Part shown: piece after piece, positions 38,770 to 55,138 of the stretch
How positions within the stretch are numbered: the first letter of the stretch is position 1
Layout: the number at the start of each line of letters is the position of its first letter
Source of the DNA: an uncultured virus (IMG/VR IMGVR_UViG_3300027241_000181)
Lineage: Duplodnaviria; Heunggongvirae; Uroviricota; Caudoviricetes
Length of the DNA stretch: 64,000 bases
Virus record (IMG/VR): IMGVR_UViG_3300027241_000181
Strand: one strand, 5' to 3'
Program-made: the position numbers and the translations under genes
Notes under the pieces: generated by a model
Told to the model about the DNA's origin: nothing
The model's database searches: none
The model's input: only the letters and a program-made list of their open reading frames with translations

Positions 38770-41064
38770 ATGGCACTAAGTCCACAACTTCTACAATTCA
38801 AGAGCTCTGGTGTATACAGACTTGAATTCGATAAGTCGCAGACTGTCAACATTCCAGCCGAAACAATCAGATTGATTGTTGGTCACTCTAAGAAAGGACC
38901 ATACAATTCTCCTGTTTTGATCGACTCAGTTGAACAGTTCATCAATGTTTTTGGTAGCATTGATCGCAACTTGGAGAAAAAAGGCATGTTCTTCCACAGA
39001 TCAGCTCTTACAGCTCTAACAAGAGGTCCTATCCTAGCTCTTAACCTAGCTAAATTTGATAGCAATGACAAAATTTCTTATGCAGCACCTGTAACTGATG
39101 CTTCAGATGCACTTTCAACTGCAATTGAGAATGAAAATGAGTACTCAAAGTTTTTCAACATTGAAAAATTCTGGACTCCTTCTGACGACGCAGTTAACAA
39201 TGTAGTCGGTAATGCTATTAAAGGTAACGTTCTAAGATTTGCTAACATTAAGCAAGATCCTATCACTGTTATTGTTAGACAAGCACAAGACGTTAAACCT
39301 TTCAATATCACTGCAAGAGAGTGGTACGGAGAAGGTAACGTTCCTGCATACCTAAATGACTTTGATTATATGTCAGACTTCATGGTTGACGTATTCGTAT
39401 TCAAAGGAGGCTTTGATGCACTTGTAATGGACACAGATCCTATTTATGGCGAATTCTTTACAGCTGATGGTCTAGATAAGACTAAGCTTGCTGAATTTGC
39501 TAACCTAAGACAAGTATCTCTAATTGCACAATACACTGGTTCTATTCTTCCAGGTTTCACAGATCTAGAAGGCAACCAAATGTACGTTGAGACAATGATC
39601 AATTCTGAAGCAAGAAGAACAGGTTTGTTCTGCGCTGTTCTAGAAGATGCAGTTCTTGACGAAGCAAACGGTACTGCAGTTGATTTAATCGGTCACACTG
39701 GTGATTCTCTAGACGCTCTATCGTATTCTTTAACTACAGGTGATAGAGATGTTATGATTGATGCTGCATGGGTATATGCTGCTGGTTCAAACACCGCAAC
39801 ATTCACATACCAGGGTATACTTACTCCACCAACGTTTGATCTAAAGGTTGGTCACTACATTCATGCTGACGCTACCAATAGACTTGCTAAGGTAACTAGA
39901 ATCATTAAAAACGTTATTCCAGCTACTACAGCACCAGCACCTCCGGCAGATCCAATTACAACTTACACAGTTTACGTACATACGACACCAGCTGCAGTAT
40001 TTGCAGGAGCTTATTCTTCATACGAAGAAGCAACTGCTGTCTATTACCCATTCGTTCTAGATGGAGCGAAGATTGGTACACAGTCTATCCTAGATTGCCT
40101 AGACGCAGTAAACACTGGTACAAACCTAGGTAACACTCTAGCAGACAAAGATAACATCACGTACAGATACATTGTTGATACATTTGGTTCTTATGAATCT
40201 GCGAACGGTATTCTAAATAAGTCACAGCTTTCAAACCTAGCTAAGACTAGACAGAATGCTTCTGCCATCCTAAACGCGCCAATGATCTTTGAATTCAAAG
40301 CATCTACAAACCCATCTTTCATCGATGATAATGGTGCATTCAATGTAAATTACGTTGCGAATGGCGGTAACCTAGACAAGAACCCAACTTCATTGTATTC
40401 TCTACCTTCAATCAACGAAGGTGCTAACTTTGCATTCTACTACGGTCCAGGTCTAGTTGTTAGAGAGAACAATAAAGATCTAATCGTTCCTCCAGCATCT
40501 TACGTTTCTAACAACTTCATTGACAAGTACACTGATTCTCTACCATGGGCAATCGTTGCTGGTCCAAGAAGAGGTGTAGTTTCTGGTTCTGGTGTATCAG
40601 GCGCAGAATACGCATTCGACAAGGCGGACAGAGATGTTCTTGAGCCATTCGGTTACAACCCAATCGTCTTCCAAAGAGGCGTTGGTCTAACAATTCTCGG
40701 TAACAAGACTGCACAGCAGTCTGTTCAATCAGCGCTGTCATCGGCTCACGTAAGGGAGGTGTTGATCTTCATACAGGAAGGTATTGCCAACATTCTTAAG
40801 GATTACGTATTTGAGTTCAACACTGCTCAAACAAGACTTGAAATTAAAACTCTAGCTGACTCATTTATGGAATCAGTTAAAGCTGACTTTGGTGTTTACG
40901 ATTACAAAAACGTAATGGACACTACAAACAATACCAATGATGTGATTGATGCAAATATGGGTATCGTCGATACTTATGTTGAACCAGTTAAAGGTCTAGA
41001 GATTGTTGTTCACAGAACTACGATCCTAAACACTGGAGAAATCTCAACTGGTAACTTCAGCTAA
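38770..41064 (+). CDS. gp18: Tail sheath protein (gp18)
   Basis: SSGVY..E.D.S, GHSKKGP.N.P, F...FG, VPP, PW...AGPRRG, G.NPI, GNKT and VFEFN...TR. Confidence 0.92.
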   Translation: MALSPQLLQFKSSGVYRLEFDKSQTVNIPAETIRLIVGHSKKGPYNSPVLIDSVEQFINVFGSIDRNLEKKGMFFHRSALTALTRGPILALNLAKFDSNDKISYAAPVTDASDALSTAIENENEYSKFFNIEKFWTPSDDAVNNVVGNAIKGNVLRFANIKQDPITVIVRQAQDVKPFNITAREWYGEGNVPAYLNDFDYMSDFMVDVFVFKGGFDALVMDTDPIYGEFFTADGLDKTKLAEFANLRQVSLIAQYTGSILPGFTDLEGNQMYVETMINSEARRTGLFCAVLEDAVLDEANGTAVDLIGHTGDSLDALSYSLTTGDRDVMIDAAWVYAAGSNTATFTYQGILTPPTFDLKVGHYIHADATNRLAKVTRIIKNVIPATTAPAPPADPITTYTVYVHTTPAAVFAGAYSSYEEATAVYYPFVLDGAKIGTQSILDCLDAVNTGTNLGNTLADKDNITYRYIVDTFGSYESANGILNKSQLSNLAKTRQNASAILNAPMIFEFKASTNPSFIDDNGAFNVNYVANGGNLDKNPTSLYSLPSINEGANFAFYYGPGLVVRENNKDLIVPPASYVSNNFIDKYTDSLPWAIVAGPRRGVVSGSGVSGAEYAFDKADRDVLEPFGYNPIVFQRGVGLTILGNKTAQQSVQSALSSAHVREVLIFIQEGIANILKDYVFEFNTAQTRLEIKTLADSFMESVKADFGVYDYKNVMDTTNNTNDVIDANMGIVDTYVEPVKGLEIVVHRTTILNTGEISTGNFS

Positions 41065-45576: not shown

Positions 45577-47028
45577 ATGAACAAGGGAGTAACATTTGTT
45601 TTAACATCATGTGGAAGAGTTGATCTTTTAGAAAAGACCCTAGAGTCTTTCTTTAAGTTTAATACATATCCAATCGACAGATATTTGATTACTGAAGATT
45701 CTGCTGATTTAAAAGTTTTCGAACAATGCAAAGTCTTAAATCAAAAATACGATAATAAGCTCGAATTCATTTTCAATTACGAGAAGTTAGGACAGACAGG
45801 ATCCATAGATAAAGCGTATTCAATGGTGGAAACAGAATACGTATTCCATTGTGAAGAAGATTGGGATTTTAATCGATCGGGTTTTATTGAAAAATCAATA
45901 AAAGTTTTAGAAAAATATCCAAAGATTTTACAAGTTTGGATTAGACCAAAGTCAGACAAGATTCTTAATAGTATTGATTCGCAAATTCACTCGGTAGAAG
46001 AAGGGGTATCTATAAGAATAGTAAAGCCCGTCAGTTTTACTGTCAAAGGAGCTAATGACGATGGAACCGATATGATAATTAAAAATTATATGGGTTTTAG
46101 TTGGAATCCTGGATTGAAAAGATTAAGTGATTGGAAACTTTTAAGTGAAGGTTACTCAGGCCTTAACAGAGAACACCTAGTCGACGCATATTATAGAGAT
46201 AGAGGATTTTCAGTTTGGAGCCTTTCTGAAAATGATGAAGATGGATATGTTACACATTCCGGATGGGATAGAAGGGCTGATAATCCTGTTCTTAAAGAAC
46301 AAAAGGTAGGCATTTCAGTTGTAATGCCATCTTTTCTTGGTGAATACGCTGGCAGTAGATCAAATCCCGTTGAAAAGTTTATCAGAGCTGTTGAATCATT
46401 TAAAGCACAGATTTACAAACAAAAGGAATTAATCATCATCAGTGATGGCTGTGAAAGAACTAATCAGATCTACGAAGAAAGATGGAAACAAGATCCTTTA
46501 ATTAGGTTGATTAAATGTGAAAAATCAGATTCAACTTGGCCTGGAACACTAAGAGAAGTAGGAAGGTCAGTAGCGAGATATAATTGGATATGTTACCTAG
46601 ACACAGACGACATCATTTTAGAAAATCATTTATCTTTAATTAGTAATGCAATTACGACAGCGCCAAATGGAACTACTGTTTTATTTGACATGTATTACAT
46701 GCTTCCTTTAATTGAAAATCCAAATAAGCTAATGCTTCAATATTTTGGAATGGATAATAATGTTAAAGGATATGAAGAATTAAGAAACGCATGTCAATTA
46801 ATTGTAATTAATCAAAAGATTGCATCTACTAAAGCAATGGGCCAAAATGGAACTTGGCAAATCGTTCATCATAAAGAAGTTCCTCATCGTTGGAGGAATT
46901 CATTGACGATGGGAGAAGACCTAGACTTTATCAATCGTTTAAAAACAACTGAAAAGTATTCTACATTTAGAGGGCAATTTCTTTTATGTCACAATACCAA
47001 TAATAGAAAAACAATTTGGGAAATCTAA
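45577..47028 (+). CDS. Two-domain glycosyltransferase (tandem GT-A/GT2 domains)
   Basis: N-domain TSCGR.DLL..TL.SF and FHCEEDW; C-domain ISVVMP, ELIIISDGC, YLDTDD and GED. Confidence 0.85.
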   Translation: MNKGVTFVLTSCGRVDLLEKTLESFFKFNTYPIDRYLITEDSADLKVFEQCKVLNQKYDNKLEFIFNYEKLGQTGSIDKAYSMVETEYVFHCEEDWDFNRSGFIEKSIKVLEKYPKILQVWIRPKSDKILNSIDSQIHSVEEGVSIRIVKPVSFTVKGANDDGTDMIIKNYMGFSWNPGLKRLSDWKLLSEGYSGLNREHLVDAYYRDRGFSVWSLSENDEDGYVTHSGWDRRADNPVLKEQKVGISVVMPSFLGEYAGSRSNPVEKFIRAVESFKAQIYKQKELIIISDGCERTNQIYEERWKQDPLIRLIKCEKSDSTWPGTLREVGRSVARYNWICYLDTDDIILENHLSLISNAITTAPNGTTVLFDMYYMLPLIENPNKLMLQYFGMDNNVKGYEELRNACQLIVINQKIASTKAMGQNGTWQIVHHKEVPHRWRNSLTMGEDLDFINRLKTTEKYSTFRGQFLLCHNTNNRKTIWEI

Positions 47029-47039
47029 ACTCATTTATA

Positions 47040-47282
47040 ATGATAACTTCACAAACAAATCAATACAACTCATCAACTGTTAAATCTAGTTCTTACAACT
47101 ACGAGCACAAGGTCCTAACAGTTCACTTTGATCACGCAACTTACGTTTATGAAAACGTGTCAGTCGAAGACTACGTATTCTTCGCTTCAGCCTCCTCACA
47201 GGGTCGCTCTCTAAATGAATTTATCAAGGGTAAGTACGAGTTTCAAAAGATTAACGAAATCAAAGAAGCTTCGGCCAAGTGA
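47040..47282 (+). CDS. KTSC domain protein
   Basis: SS.V....Y......L.V.F....Y.YENV....Y..F..A.S.G...N..IK..Y. Confidence 0.8.
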   Translation: MITSQTNQYNSSTVKSSSYNYEHKVLTVHFDHATYVYENVSVEDYVFFASASSQGRSLNEFIKGKYEFQKINEIKEASAK

Positions 47283-47366: not shown

Positions 47367-47440
47367 GGACCCATAGCTCAATTGGATAGAGCAACACACT
47401 TCTAATGTGTAGGTTACAGGTTCGACTCCTGTTGGGTTCA
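47367..47440 (+). tRNA. trnR: tRNA-Arg(UCU)
   Basis: GGACCCA/TGGGTTC acceptor; anticodon arm ACACA-CT TCT AA-TGTGT; GGTTCGACTCC. Confidence 0.93.
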
Positions 47441-47563
47441 CAAAAAAAGTTTAAACCCGATGAAACTATAACATACCATCAGGTATAAATAACACAACAA
47501 AATAGTTCTTTGTTTTTGGTTACACAAAGACGGGAGACCCTGGAAACAGACTCCCTTTTTAAT

Positions 47564-47645
47564 GCGGATGTGGCGAAATTGGTAGACGCGCCAGACTTAG
47601 GATCTGGTTTCTTACGAAGTGAAGGTTCGATTCCTTTCATCCGCA
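47564..47645 (+). tRNA. trnL: tRNA-Leu(UAG)
   Basis: GCGGATG/CATCCGC acceptor; CCAGA-CT TAG GA-TCTGG; long variable arm. Confidence 0.93.
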
Positions 47646-47699
47646 CAAACCCAGACGTGTACTAAAACACTGTTCTTTGACATATTAGTTCTAATAAAG

Positions 47700-47784
47700 G
47701 GAGGCGTGGCAGAGTGGTCGATCGCGGCAGTCTTGAAAACTGTTGACTGTAACAGGTCCGTAGGTTCGAATCCTACCGCCTCCG
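47700..47784 (+). tRNA. trnS: tRNA-Ser(UGA)
   Basis: GGAGGCG/CGCCTCC acceptor; GCAGT-CT TGA AA-ACTGT; long variable arm. Confidence 0.93.
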
Positions 47785-47845
47785 CGAAGAGATTGCAATT
47801 CTATTGAGAATTGATTCTCTTTATTAACCTTTAAACAAGAGTAAC

Positions 47846-48010
47846 ATGAAAAAATCTCTTTTTCTAGCTGCAATGGCATTCGCCGCTGTAGCTTGTAACA
47901 ACACTGAAGAGGTTGTAACTGAGGAAACTACTACCGTTGAGGAAGTTGTTTCTGAGGAAGCTACCACTGAAGTAGTTGCGGAAGAAGCTACCGAAGTAGT
48001 AGCTGAGTAA
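47846..48010 (+). CDS. 54-aa acidic lipoprotein; not in the ORF track
   Basis: MKKSLFLAAMAFAAVAC lipobox signal, then low-complexity E/V/T/A repeats. Confidence 0.75.
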   Translation: MKKSLFLAAMAFAAVACNNTEEVVTEETTTVEEVVSEEATTEVVAEEATEVVAE

Positions 48011-48069
48011 TCCCACTGAGTCTAGCCTAGGGGACGGGACTAACACTCAACTCGATACCGTCCCCTAAT

Positions 48070-48145
48070 GCCTCCTTAGCTCAGTTGGTAGAGCCACTGA
48101 TTTGTAATCAGTAGGTCGTTGGTTCGAGTCCGACAGGAGGCTCCA
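48070..48145 (+). tRNA. trnT: tRNA-Thr(UGU)
   Basis: GCCTCCT/AGGAGGC acceptor; ACTGA-TT TGT AA-TCAGT; encoded CCA. Confidence 0.93.
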
Positions 48146-48146
48146 A

Positions 48147-48242
48147 GGTGGTAATTAGACGAAAATGAAATTCATGCTGTGATGTTAACCTAATCAGCAC
48201 ATTCAGAAGTAGAAATGAGTAACCGCAAATTACTCGCCACCA
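48147..48242 (+). ncRNA. Unassigned tRNA-like structured RNA
   Basis: GGTGGT/GCCACC terminal stem stacked on a GAGTAA-CCGCAAA-TTACTC hairpin; internal TGCTG/CAGCA stem. Confidence 0.5.
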
Positions 48243-48248
48243 AGAAAA

Positions 48249-48342
48249 TGGAGAGATAAACGTAAAACCCTAAGAGCACAGTCGACGGACTGCTTAGGTT
48301 GGGACCTTGATGCTGCAAGCGCGCTAAAAAGGTGAAGCTCCA
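48249..48342 (+). ncRNA. Unassigned structured RNA (three-way junction)
   Basis: TGGAG/CTCCA closing stem; CCTAAG/CTTAGG with CAGTC-GACG-GACTG; ACCTT/AAGGT. Confidence 0.45.
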
Positions 48343-48349
48343 AAAAATT

Positions 48350-48422
48350 GCGAAAGTAGCTCAGTTGGTAGAGCATGACCTTGCCAAGGTCAGGGTCGCC
48401 GGTTCGAACCCGGTCTTTCGCT
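48350..48422 (+). tRNA. trnG: tRNA-Gly(GCC)
   Basis: GCGAAAG/CTTTCGC acceptor; TGACC-TT GCC AA-GGTCA. Confidence 0.93.
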
Positions 48423-48423
48423 C

Positions 48424-48723
48424 AAAATAGTAATGTGACCGAACAAGGGGTTAAGAGTCCTTAAGGTACTGGCTGAACTGCTGAAAAGCAGGAATGTTGG
48501 ATCACACAGATCTATGAGATAAAACCACTCAAACTACAGGGTAGAATGCGCAACCTGGTAGTCAATGAGGTCCCGCCAAGATACGCTATCTGATCTTTGC
48601 AACGGGTGCTGGTATGCAATCCAGCTGGTCATTACAACAGAACTAGCTACTCTGTTGGACCATGGGTGAAAAGGGGTAGATCCAAGGTGTATGGGTAGTC
48701 AGGAATCCCATTATTACTATTTT
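48424..48723 (+). ncRNA. Unassigned 300-nt structured RNA between tRNA-Gly and tRNA-Ala
   Basis: Perfect 11-bp closing helix AAAATAGTAAT/ATTACTATTTT and several internal hairpins; no plus-strand ORF in the track. Confidence 0.6.
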
Positions 48724-48727
48724 TCAT

Positions 48728-48804
48728 GGGGGTATAGCTCAGTTGGCTAGAGCATCTGCCTTGCACGCAGAGGGTCGTGGGTTCGAATCCCTCTACCTCC
48801 ACCA
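48728..48804 (+). tRNA. trnA: tRNA-Ala(UGC)
   Basis: GGGGGTA/TACCTCC acceptor with G3:U70; TCTGC-CT TGC AC-GCAGA; encoded CCA. Confidence 0.95.
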
Positions 48805-48856
48805 TGAGTTTCTTTGTTCTCAGGCAAAACAAAGTGGAGCTAATGTGGCGAAATTA

Positions 48857-48893
48857 GACGGTTGAGCTTCGGTTCAACCGTCCATTTCTTTTT
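48857..48893 (+). terminator. Terminator-like hairpin after tRNA-Ala
   Basis: GACGGTTGAGC-TTCG-GTTCAACCGTC with a T-rich tail. Confidence 0.7.
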
Positions 48894-48896
48894 AAT

Positions 48897-49157
48897 ATGA
48901 GTAAGATCAAAGAAATCATTGAAGGTTGGGGAAGATTGCTCTTCCAAGATTACGATAACCTAGCACCTGCCCTGAAAGAAAGAACAGAGCAGCGTCTTTC
49001 AATTTGTCATGATTGCAAGATTCGTAACGGTGTAATTTGCGATCCAACCAAAACAGGAACTCATGCGGAAACAGGTAAGATTGTTCGAGGATGTGGTTGT
49101 CACCTAAGAGCTAAAGCTCTATCTGTAAATTCTTCTTGTCCACTTGGTAAGTGGTGA
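48897..49157 (+). CDS. Small Cys-rich (metal-binding) phage protein
   Basis: RLSICHDC...C...GCGC.L.AK......CPLGKW. Confidence 0.7.
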   Translation: MSKIKEIIEGWGRLLFQDYDNLAPALKERTEQRLSICHDCKIRNGVICDPTKTGTHAETGKIVRGCGCHLRAKALSVNSSCPLGKW

Positions 49158-49191
49158 AACAATTTTAGATTTGACTGTATAAATACTAAAC

Positions 49192-49265
49192 GGCCCGTTC
49201 GTCTAGCGGTTTAGGACATCTCCCTTTCACGGAGAAGATCACGAGTTCGAATCTCGTACGGGTCA
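49192..49265 (+). tRNA. trnE: tRNA-Glu(UUC)
   Basis: GGCCCGT/ACGGGTC acceptor; TCTCC-CT TTC AC-GGAGA. Confidence 0.93.
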
Positions 49266-49286
49266 CGAATCTTAATTCAATTCAAA

Positions 49287-52414: not shown

Positions 52415-55138
52415 ATGCCTTACGTTTCAAAGGATGACATAATGGTTTATATCGGCAGTAACCTTTCAGTGGTTGCTGGCCAACCATCGACCGTCGAGCT
52501 AATCTTGTACAAAGACTACATCAACAATCAGTTGAATGCCGCTGATGCCGATTCAATTACGGTATCTCTGTACAATTCATTAGGACAAAAGATGTATCAG
52601 TACTCAAACCCAGTTATTTCGGGTATTACTGATCTTCTAACAATGGGTAACCCAGCAACAGCAACGCAGGGTTACATCTCTTTCTCGATCACACCAAACC
52701 AGAGCGCAAATCTGGCCAATGGTAACCTTTATGCTCAAGTAACAATCACATACTCTAACTACTATCCATCAGCGAAGACTTACATTATTCCACAGTTGAT
52801 GATTGGTACAGTTAGCGGATCAAGTATTACAGGTACTGGTTCAGGTTCAGGTTCTGGTTCAGGATCGGGTTCAGGATCAACTTCACTTTCAGGTTCAAGT
52901 AACGCTTCAAGCCCTTACGTTAGATACCAAGTATCTGCAGTTGATGGCTCAAACCCATCACTGAAATCAGTCACGTTCAATGCCTCTGATCCTTCACTGG
53001 TAACTTCAATCAAGTTTTACAACTTAGATCAGAACAACGTTAGAAACGTACTGCTTGAAAATTATCTGATAAAGAGAGACCCGGGCGGTTCTAACGTCAA
53101 CGCTAACATCGTTGTTACAAACGCAGGTTCTCCAAACCAATACGCTATCTACGAAATTACAGGTTATAATAGAATTAACGCTGAAGCCGGTGGAGGAGAC
53201 GATAACGATAATGATTACACTGAAGTTCTAGTTACATACGAAGATAGCTCATACTCTCCAGTTGCTTCACCATACGTATGGGAAGTAGGACAGTACATTA
53301 GTTATGACATTGATATGTTTGGTGGAGCAGGTTCTGGTTCAGGAACTGCAGGATCAGACGGCACTTCAGGTTCTTCAGGTACAGACGGTACTTCAGGTTC
53401 ATCAGGTACTGATGGCGTAGCGGGTCCACAGGGTCCTGCAGGTGTAGATGGTGTAATAGGTTCTGACGGTTCATCTGGTTCTTCAGGTACTGATGGTACT
53501 TCAGGCTCATCTGGCTCTTCAGGTACTGATGGTACTTCAGGCTCATCTGGTTCTTCAGGTTCTGATGGTACTTCAGGCTCATCTGGTTCTGATGGTACTT
53601 CAGGTTCTTCAGGTACTGATGGTACTTCAGGCTCATCTGGTTCTTCAGGTACTGATGGTACTTCAGGTTCTTCAGGCACTGATGGTACTTCAGGTTCTGA
53701 TGGTACTTCTGGTTCATCTGGTACAGATGGCGTTGGAGGTATTACACAGGCTGGAACTAACATTGATGTTTCGGGTTCTGGTACAGTTGCAGACCCTTAT
53801 GTAATTAGTGCTTCTTCATTAGCAAGTGGATCTTCAGGTTCATCAGGTACTGATGGTACTTCGGGTTCTTCAGGTACAGACGGTACTTCGGGTTCTTCAG
53901 GTACAGACGGTACTTCGGGTTCTTCAGGTACAGACGGTACTTCGGGTTCTTCAGGTACAGACGGTACTTCGGGTTCTTCAGGTACTTCAGGAGATAATGG
54001 TACTTCAGGTTCATCAGGCACGGACGGCACATCAGGTTCATCTGGCACAGACGGTACATCGGGTTCTTCAGGTACAGACGGCACTTCAGGTTCATCAGGT
54101 ACTGATGGCACTTCTGGTTCTTCAGGTACTTCAGGTGACAATGGTACTTCGGGTTCTTCAGGTACTTCAGGTGACAATGGTACTTCGGGTTCTTCAGGAA
54201 CTGATGGTACTTCAGGATCATCAGGCACGGACGGTACTTCAGGTTCTTCAGGAACTGATGGTACTTCAGGTTCATCGGGTACTTCAGGTGACAATGGTAC
54301 TTCGGGTTCTTCAGGTACTTCAGGTGACAATGGTACTTCGGGTTCTTCAGGAACTGATGGTACTTCAGGATCATCAGGCACAGACGGTACTTCAGGTTCT
54401 TCAGGAACTGATGGTACTTCAGGTTCATCGGGTACTTCAGGTGACAATGGTACTTCGGGTTCTTCAGGTACTTCAGGTTCATCTGGCACGGACGGCACTT
54501 CTGGTTCTTCGGGTACTAATGGTACTTCAGGTTCTTCAGGTACAGATGGTACGTCAGGTTCTTCAGGTACTAATGGTCTTGGAATTCCTTCAGGTGGTAC
54601 ATCAGGTCAAGCGCTTGTTAAAATTGACTCTAACCCATATAACGTACAGTGGTCTACTATCTCAGGAGGTTCTGGTTCAGGAACTAACAAGTATCTACTA
54701 AGACTTGAATATGATTCATCAAACCACCTAGTTAATAACACTACAGATAACAAGTTTGTTTCTGCAACTGGATTCTTGACTGCAAACGCATCAGTTGACT
54801 CAGTTTCAGTTAATACTTCAACGGCAATTTATACAGCTACAGTTTCATTCAATGAATCAAATCCACCACTTGCAATTCAGGTTCTTGCATGGGATCCTGC
54901 AACTTACAAGTATGAAGTTCACGCCTACAGAGTTGACGCTGCACTAGCTAAAATTGATTCTGCAGCTGCAAACTTCTCTACGTCTGGCACAAATCAACTT
55001 GTTCCAAACTTCTTAAATGGTGCATTTACAACATCAATGACACTTGACGTAAGAAAAGACTTTATTAAATACGGTAATAAATCAGGTTTGGGTTCTTCTG
55101 CAAGAAACGCTCACGCATACGTAATATTTGTATTCTAA
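52415..55138 (+). CDS. Fibre-like virion protein with long Gly-X-Y (GTS-GSS-GTD) repeats
   Basis: 907 aa; GATATATA at 52379; two repeat tracts separated by [23 protein letters not shown] motif after the repeats. Confidence 0.75.
53323..54577 (+). repeat. Tandem 9/27-nt-period repeats encoding GTSGSSGTD / GTSGDN
   Basis: For example consecutive identical GGTACTTCGGGTTCTTCAGGTACAGAC units near 53855-53962. Confidence 0.9.

Follow-up and report, generated by a model that had tools for sequence, protein, structure and literature searches.

A tRNA-flanked spacer in a large phage genome

What occupies the 300 nt between two tRNA genes of a large phage? The spacer in question lies at 48424-48723 of the window (the whole stretch of 64,000 nt analyzed here, from the uncultured virus record IMGVR_UViG_3300027241_000181), within a region of the plus strand (47367-49266) in which ARAGORN identifies seven tRNAs. 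It is punctuated upstream by tRNA-Gly(GCC) at 48350-48423 and downstream by tRNA-Ala(UGC) at 48728-48804, and the single overlapping ORF of at least 40 aa is a minus-strand frame that passes through tRNA-Ala. The source of the window is a large tailed phage, with a tail-sheath domain at 38770-41064 followed by a protein that shares 33-46% identity with proteins encoded by a 462-kb uncultured phage, Tenacibaculum phages PTm1/5, PAU, and Lak phages; we infer a Bacteroidota host. An original prediction, made from the letters of the sequence, held that the spacer encodes a multi-helix noncoding RNA belonging to a tRNA-punctuated block, and that this RNA was a candidate for an undescribed system.

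Homologues and covariation

Folded on its own, the spacer is not unusually stable (z = -1.42, with 19 of 200 shuffles folding as well), and its minimum-energy structure misses two covarying helices of the first junction described below, so that proof of a structured RNA has to come from homologues. We collected these using three pattern scans and an iterated HMM, which gave matches in 119 of 178 sequences; chance pattern matches dropped by the HMM numbered 4 of 17, 5 of 82, and 47 of 74 in the three scans. Removal of partial and duplicate copies left 71 distinct full-length homologues. They come from large phages, Lak megaphages among them, have cores of 273-292 nt, and share a mean identity of 0.58. 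We distinguish a window subfamily (17 sequences including the window's own, 60-100% identical to the window) and a main clade (54 sequences, 43-53% identical to it). As the search patterns required both UA...AU hairpins, the conservation of those hairpins is built in, while the junctions, pseudoknot 1, and the palindromes discussed below were absent from the patterns.

An unsupervised G-test on the 71 sequences returned 19 column pairs with values above any seen in 25 tree-based null alignments. None of the 19 is less than 89% paired, and among them are both junction helices and two pairs of the pseudoknot 48453-56/48594-97. An 83-pair model, which was drawn on the window's sequence and is therefore favored over slid controls, has 95.3% of its cells paired in 18 subfamily sequences and two-sided changes at 43 of the 83 pairs, compared with 84.0% and 27 for shuffles and 32-45% paired for the slid controls. 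The covariation check on collected homologues that the original prediction had proposed thus came out in its favor, and the spacer at 48424-48723 is confirmed as a real structured RNA.

The RNA was found in fifteen Lak phage records at 90-99% identity to one homologue (L133); a Lak copy lies, for instance, at 492015-492322 of MK250015, on the minus strand. The 735-kb phage LR756501 carries a longer copy (L234:470-819, minus strand), in which the loop B arm contains an insertion of ~45 nt and the UA...AU loops are altered; as a result, members of that kind would be missed by the search patterns. Among the matches listed in a BLASTN search of 48050-48900 against named phages, none covers most of the query, and the matches are short pieces, many of them under tRNA genes; with the spacer alone, only a 47-nt piece of LR756501/3 matched. 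A search of bacteria and archaea with one genome per species gave five matches, of which only one is real, on a 26.8-kb contig of a Cryptobacteroides MAG, and the element therefore appears to be essentially phage-borne. Relatives of the protein encoded downstream were also searched for further copies, and no new copy was found there. In one homologue contig (L025:1-67, minus strand), a second long-RNA copy starts directly after the first, 307 nt downstream, and is ended by the contig edge; this double copy, seen on a single contig, is either a tandem duplication or an assembly artefact.

Architecture of the element

All parts of the element lie on the plus strand, and every stem named in the original prediction was found in its predicted place. 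The ends are joined by an outer closing helix, in which 48424-48435, the 5' strand of what we call unit A, pairs with 48712-48723 of unit B. The perfect 11-bp end pairing reported for it holds as 11 Watson-Crick pairs plus one G-U; a comparable terminal duplex occurs in none of 20,000 mononucleotide shuffles, and the helix is 85.8% paired with two-sided changes at five of nine pairs. Inside it lies a manA-type junction (junction 1, 48436-48467), consisting of a UG linker, a 3-bp helix (48438-40/48465-67, 211 of 213 cells paired), the motif GAAYA, and a hairpin at 48446-48462 (269 of 284 cells). By inferred numbering, this hairpin is the equivalent of manA P3, and its loop at 48453-56 forms pseudoknot 1. 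The next arm, at 48469-48500, has a stem paired in 270 of 284 cells and ends in a GNRA tetraloop (48483-86) which, when located by a GNRA-like pattern, reads GAAA in 61 homologues, GCAA in 6, GUAA in 3, and GGAA in 1. It is followed by the upstream partner strands of a second junction (48509-48526), with 48509-15 pairing with 48676-82 and 48524-26 with 48665-67 (213 of 213 cells). An extra helix considered here, 48516-18/48528-30, is broken in some relatives by eye and was left out of the count.

The middle of the element is formed by a hairpin with a palindromic loop A (48533-48562; 6-mer at 48547-52, with a core 4-mer among GGCC, GCGC, and GUAC) and the equivalent of manA P8 (48572-48606), in whose loop strand 48590-93 is complementary to 48699-702 and strand 48594-97 to 48453-56. 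Unit A ends at 48608-48630 with a P9-like hairpin (48608-25), paired in 355 of 355 cells although the search pattern already specified its inner GG/CC pairs and its loop motif, and with a closing strand (48626-30) that pairs with 48658-62 in 277 of 284 cells. Unit B opens with a P1-equivalent hairpin at 48635-48657, whose 9-nt loop B is made up of 2 nt, a 6-nt palindrome (48644-49), and 1 nt, a layout that recalls the HIV-1 dimerisation loop. The closing strand of unit B, junction 2, and a long-range strand occupy 48658-48682, a stretch remodelled in the window subfamily, where GAAAAG replaces GAAYAA. The manA P9 hairpin (48691-711, with an 11-nt loop) and the outer closing strand complete the element at 48691-48723.

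Evidence for two manA cores

We consider it very probable that this RNA family contains two manA cores. The long RNAs carry twice the module that is found in the manA of cyanophage S-CREM1, and the Rfam manA model splits one homologue (L092) into adjacent full-model matches at 509-721 and 727-814, the border between which coincides with the unit border drawn independently here. The 3-bp helices of the junctions pair in their own register (211/213 and 213/213 cells) and not when crossed (289/426). For the closing helices it is the swapped register that pairs (229/284 and 277/284 cells, versus 137/284 and 155/284 unswapped). A strict automatic rule finds at least two junctions in 46 of the 54 main-clade RNAs versus 8 of 2130 shuffles; by the same rule, 6 of the 17 members of the window subfamily have two junctions. 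Junction 2 in this subfamily reads GAAAAG or GAAAGG, its inner stem is lost, and its 3-bp helix barely varies.

Covariation shows the two units to be unequal: unit A (48424-48630) lacks the 5' hairpin, and unit B (48635-48723) lacks the middle. It also shows that the closing helices are swapped, the 5' strand of A pairing with the 3' strand of B and the 3' strand of A with the 5' strand of B. The order of the pieces differs from that of a plain tandem copy, as the partner strand of junction 2 sits inside unit A. We conjecture that such an arrangement could have originated from a tandem array followed by deletions.

Relationship to manA

Of the Rfam families, only manA (RF01745) matches the whole element, at 25.5 bits (E 5e-4) against a cut-off of 55.2 bits, and no family passes its cut-off on the element. 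The match is best at the junction and the 3' hairpin, and the spacer alone scores 12.6 bits. The manA model also matches seven other homologue loci in one scan and 8 of 20 loci in another (23-36 bits), and none of the homologues scored reaches the manA cut-off. With a model of the window subfamily (R1), the reciprocal comparison gives 96-148 bits for 9 of 9 distant long RNAs and no more than 26 bits for manA-type loci; R1 gave no match to single-unit cyanophage manAs, to which an HMM of the long family gives weak matches (E of at least 0.16). The S-CREM1 manA, for which PMC9964418 is the source of the accession, scores 96.6 bits as a single module composed of a UA...AAU hairpin on the closing helix, UG, a 3-bp helix, GAAYAA, a stem, and UAA with the partner triplet. 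RNase P, tmRNA, GOLLD, ROOL, and introns had been named as the Rfam families to compare; the element matches none of them (the GOLLD, ROOL, and group I intron models give no match to it), and the sub-threshold manA match is what emerged instead.

Several parts are common to manA and the element: the UG-NNN-GAAYAA / UAA-NNN junction with its following hairpin, the GNRA arm, a P8 loop strand that carries first the P9 partner and then the P3 partner (the order seen in cyanophage-type manA), and a terminal UA...AAU hairpin with an 11-nt loop stacked on the closing helix, the invariance of this loop being due to the construction of the search. The S-CREM1 manA is, like the element, positioned between tRNAs. 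There are also clear differences. While manA is <200-215 nt long, the element has ~300 nt, two junctions, and swapped closing helices, and the 5' P1 hairpin that precedes the closing helix of manA is missing from unit A, its equivalent being located inside the element at 48635-48657, before junction 2. The P4 multiloop of manA with P5-P7 has no clear counterpart and is skipped or deleted in the Rfam alignments; the same is true of the L5-L7 contact, as the G-test gave no covarying partner for such a loop. Conversely, the extra palindromic loop A belongs to the element and not to manA. The phages differ too, manA being found in cyanophages and the element in Bacteroidota-type large phages such as Lak.

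We hold with high confidence that the element is homologous to manA. Because it scores below the cut-off and lacks P4-P7, it is not a plain member of the family but a new architectural variant. "Undescribed system" was therefore too strong a term for a relative of manA, although the double-core form is indeed absent from Rfam. The largely open-access literature searched describes neither a manA that has a double core or a length of ~300 nt nor the occurrence of the element in Lak phages. The accessible text of PMC6784885 mentions Rfam for tRNA introns only, and that of PMC10085705 has nothing on manA; the accessible portion of PMC10690425 reports RNA candidates of 29-151 nt, and its supplements may hold fragments of the element. 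The homologues extend the manA family to Lak megaphages and the 735-kb phage, where the Rfam cut-off misses them.

A full tandem form of manA

A second family, ~390 nt long, consists of two full-size units with a closing helix that spans both. It was found via an ordinary-manA scan, in which 20 of 51 loci were tested and 6 of these pass the Rfam cut-off, and via a search with model R1; extra matches lay upstream of one clade. A strict test was passed by 11 of 29 distinct manA-type loci (L182, L189, L194, L196, L201, L203, L205, L207-209, and L214), and the same form was recognized by eye in L180, L185, L225, L228, and L199; the cyanophage-type loci, L213, and L223 have a single unit only. The ~390-nt form shares with the element its two junctions, the closing helix over both units, the 9-nt P1 loop (that of loop B, perfectly palindromic in 8 of 11), and a partner in the 5' unit for the P9 loop of the 3' unit, where complementarity to a loop of the 5' unit is maintained with compensatory changes. 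Unlike the element, it has both units at full size and P1 at the 5' end. A tRNA is nearby at 1 of 9 scanned loci.

Rfam annotates the 3' unit alone in these loci, reading the P9 hairpin of the 5' unit as P1, and in L189, L194, and L196 the 3' half clears the Rfam cut-off. Some cut-off-passing manA sequences are therefore only the 3' half of a longer RNA; the family boundaries need revising, and the ~390-nt form deserves its own model. In the accessible rows of the 2010 manA alignment (PMC2864571), one looks like the 3' half of a ~390-nt RNA, and several have P1 loops containing AGCU or GAUC.

Loop contacts and palindromes

Pseudoknot 1 (48453-56/48594-97) has all four pairs formed in 62 of 70 sequences, compared with a mean of 12 and a maximum of 23 in shuffles that ignore relatedness, and its target changes 10 times on the tree. 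The second contact, 48590-93/48699-702, is complementary but invariant, with the first pair broken in 21 of 70 sequences. By helix numbers mapped onto those of a manA preprint from the helix order in the Rfam consensus, the two contacts appear to match L3-L8 and L8-L9 of manA, respectively. In the accessible part of that preprint (10.64898/2026.07.01.735769), intermolecular L5-L7', L8-L9', and L3-L8' kisses are described in pentamers, 8-, 10-, and 60-mers. The pentamers are held either by L5-L7' and L8-L9' or by L6-P6', L5-L7', and L3-L8', and five variants are described as forming 8-, 10-, or 60-mers, based on cryo-EM.

Loop A is self-complementary in 69 of the 71 homologues. On the tree it changes 13 times, in 7 cases by a double change from one Watson-Crick dinucleotide to another, versus 0 of 18 in a control loop; a wobble-tolerant palindrome test gave no separation (11/13 versus 12/18). 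Loop B, with about 19 of its positions set by motif and not by folding, is self-complementary in 59 of 71 and in its inner four bases in 65 of 71, leaving 6 of 71 in which even these four are not, and it switches among four palindromes. The two loops are not mutually paired, being complementary in only 5 of 71, and for the loop of the unit A hairpin no partner was found; the window and a relative with 99% identity to it differ at the two variable bases of this loop. Because adjacent bases cannot pair within one strand and the loops switch between palindromes, the pairing would be expected between copies, and palindrome switching in loops A and B thus points to intermolecular contacts. Palindrome switching is likewise taken as support for intermolecular pairs at the OLE and GOLLD bridges in the accessible text of PMC12286853. 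We regard higher-order self-assembly of the element as rather probable.

ROOL, GOLLD, and OLE are, as described in the sections of PMC12286853 available, large structured RNAs whose kissing loops are symmetric; palindromes switch in OLE and GOLLD, and ROOL and GOLLD occur in phages near tRNA islands, as the element does. They show no Rfam match to the element and no shared core was detected, and GOLLD is often >800 nt long, unlike the element.

A proposed model and its alternatives

Our preferred interpretation, which we regard as more likely than not, is that the element belongs to the manA family and acts in trans as a phage-encoded RNA, with its two units fused head to tail, and that it multimerises via kissing loops. 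The RNA would be co-transcribed with the tRNAs and released by their processing. It would then fold as a covalent pseudo-dimer, in which the fused units supply each other with the P8 loop-P9 loop contact that joins neighbors in the manA ring, and could multimerise without protein through its two symmetric kissing loops, placed on two-fold axes, and the P3-loop/P8 contact. The product would be a closed RNA-only oligomer. The weakest step is its role: our guess, a doubtful one, is that during infection an abundant, stable particle may function as scaffold or decoy for host proteins that bind or cut RNA. According to the preprint in its accessible part (10.64898/2026.07.01.735769), manA forms RNA-only cages of up to 60-mers, yet it is still described as cis-regulatory; the element itself has a tRNA on either side and no gene to control, which speaks for a free RNA.

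It is rather unlikely, in our view, that the double-core RNA acts as a monomer or simple dimer, for example in binding a protein or ligand, with palindromes that give at most a dimer and no cage. The fusion could satisfy the neighbor contacts within a single chain, the palindromic loop B is missing in the six homologues noted above, and EGFOA and OLE RNAs stop at dimers or trimers according to the accessible parts of 10.64898/2026.07.01.735769 and PMC12286853. Two different self-complementary loops per chain, however, imply two symmetric partners and hence rings or chains, and the manA variants described as 8-, 10-, or 60-mers set a precedent for larger assemblies. Convergence on short manA motifs by an independent RNA family would account for manA scores of 12.6-36 bits, about half the cut-off or lower, and for the failure of R1 to detect single-unit cyanophage manAs. 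We judge it improbable, as the junction, the terminal hairpin, the order of the P9- and P3-partner strands, and the P1 loop shared with the ~390-nt family all correspond in order, and the 3' halves of that family pass the manA cut-off. As for a non-functional spacer, or one that matters only for its DNA-level palindromes, the modest single-sequence z-score would fit, but covariation at 43-100% identity to the window and sequence changes that keep a symmetry presumably unneeded in a protein-binding DNA site make this a negligible prospect.

A cis-regulatory element or riboswitch could be imagined given that manA was scored as cis-regulatory and a possible riboswitch by Weinberg in 2010 (PMC2864571, in its accessible part), and that the original prediction gave the RNA two possible closing helices. 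The outer helix stands. The alternative, 48430-48440/48627-48635, is present in the sequence and 87.7% paired in the window subfamily, but it shows no covariation: its pairing level is equalled by 185 of 500 shuffles, the pairing has a probability of 0.0, and 13 of 17 subfamily members retain it versus 1 of the 54 main-clade RNAs, which leaves a functional switch between the two helices unsupported. Moreover, a tRNA and a terminator-like hairpin, rather than a gene, lie downstream in the window, and no neighboring ORF family is present at more than 11 of 120 loci, so that no gene is common across the family; we therefore rate a riboswitch as highly improbable. The same rating applies to maturation of the neighboring tRNAs by a catalytic activity of the element, whether RNase P-like or self-processing. 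Size, conservation, and proximity to tRNAs (a same-strand tRNA lies within 30 nt in all 17 members of the window subfamily) would suit such an activity, but for 20 of the 54 main-clade members the available DNA shows no tRNA within 500 nt, and RNase P, tmRNA, intron, and ribozyme models give no match in the spacer at E<=10. The RNase P resemblance once suspected thereby finds no support, and the motifs behind it are part of the P1-equivalent stem and junction 2; the accompanying remarks that the P4 consensus (the catalytic core) and tmRNA ends are missing agree with these results, and ARAGORN finds no tmRNA. With RNase P RNA and tmRNA the element has in common only its size class and paired ends. 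The only tmRNA match, a weak one to the permuted form (E 2.2), is located outside the element, at 48777-48848.

A broader scenario can be put forward tentatively: manA may be a modular protomer from which large phages have, on two occasions or more, made tandem dimers by fusion, as the compact ~300-nt interlocked form (the element, in Lak and other very large phages) and the ~390-nt full tandem. The fusion would fix one neighbor contact of the ring covalently and add two-fold kissing loops, to give a cage symmetry unlike that of the pentamer-based manA. If true, RNA quaternary structure would here have evolved in nature through duplication and the swapping of helices, much like that of pseudo-symmetric protein oligomers. 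The element is a target for cryo-EM with specific, covariation-backed predictions on interfaces and symmetry.

Representation in RNA contigs

In each of the four runs examined, which come from four studies and were taken from 24 RNA runs with shares of 0.07-0.21, the element is covered by RNA contigs. One contig of 1594 nt spans tRNA-Thr through tRNA-Ala, and contig differences in the first hairpin keep its pairs (48447 and 48449 with 48459 and 48458). Contigs of the element have depths of 99-601 in the four runs and 46600-46959 is uncovered, but contigs cannot rank genes and the gap proves nothing. Two runs share contig ends at 48440 and 48667, which do not agree with the predicted RNA ends. 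The contigs attest to the presence of the element sequence but not to strand, ends, or level, and library DNA is a possible source.

The tRNA block and neighboring features

The double-core manA-like RNA as a whole (48424-48723, plus strand) is defined by the manA match, the homologues, and covariation, and together with the constant tRNA proximity in its subfamily this bears out the prediction of a multi-helix noncoding RNA, here shown to be conserved, within a tRNA-punctuated block. The tRNAs that flank the homologues vary (Thr, Gly, Arg, Asn, Ala, and others), so the association is with tRNA punctuation and not with Gly and Ala as such. The block is closed by an intrinsic-terminator-like hairpin on the plus strand (48857-48890, hairpin 48857-48882), which is a consensus match only; the terminator scan found 2 in the region against 2.4 expected by chance, and a promoter scan of the region was also at chance level (6 found, 5.7 expected). 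The stretch 48808-48890 folds with z = -3.51 and contains, in order, a hairpin, a short stretch like the start of a tRNA-Leu D-arm, and the terminator-like hairpin, which is replaced by a different hairpin in the homologous locus L061.

Further structured elements had been proposed for the block, and this gains support from two neighboring spacers, which have compensatory changes in a few relatives. In the spacer after tRNA-Thr (48147-48241), the paired ends resemble an acceptor stem and a hairpin resembles a T-arm, and L005 and L061 have compensatory changes in both. This spacer has no convincing Rfam match (z -0.45) and is possibly another uncatalogued RNA. The paired ends of the spacer element before tRNA-Gly (48250-48341) change from GGAG/CUCC to GGGG/CCCC in L079, and it too has no Rfam match (z -1.17). 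Stable hairpins lie directly 5' of tRNA-Thr (48028-48067, z -2.75), kept with changes in L066 and L079, and of tRNA-Leu (47512-47555, z -2.40). Just upstream of the tRNA block, a KTSC-domain protein is encoded at 47040-47282, and an ORF of 907 aa with long GTSGSS-type repeats is found at 52415-55138. Group I introns occur in tRNA clusters adjoining two homologues (L007:1162-1373 and L092:82-287). Lastly, tRNAs with the amber-reading CUA anticodon are located near two others (L033:1404-1477 and L106:477-549), which suggests stop-codon recoding in those phages.
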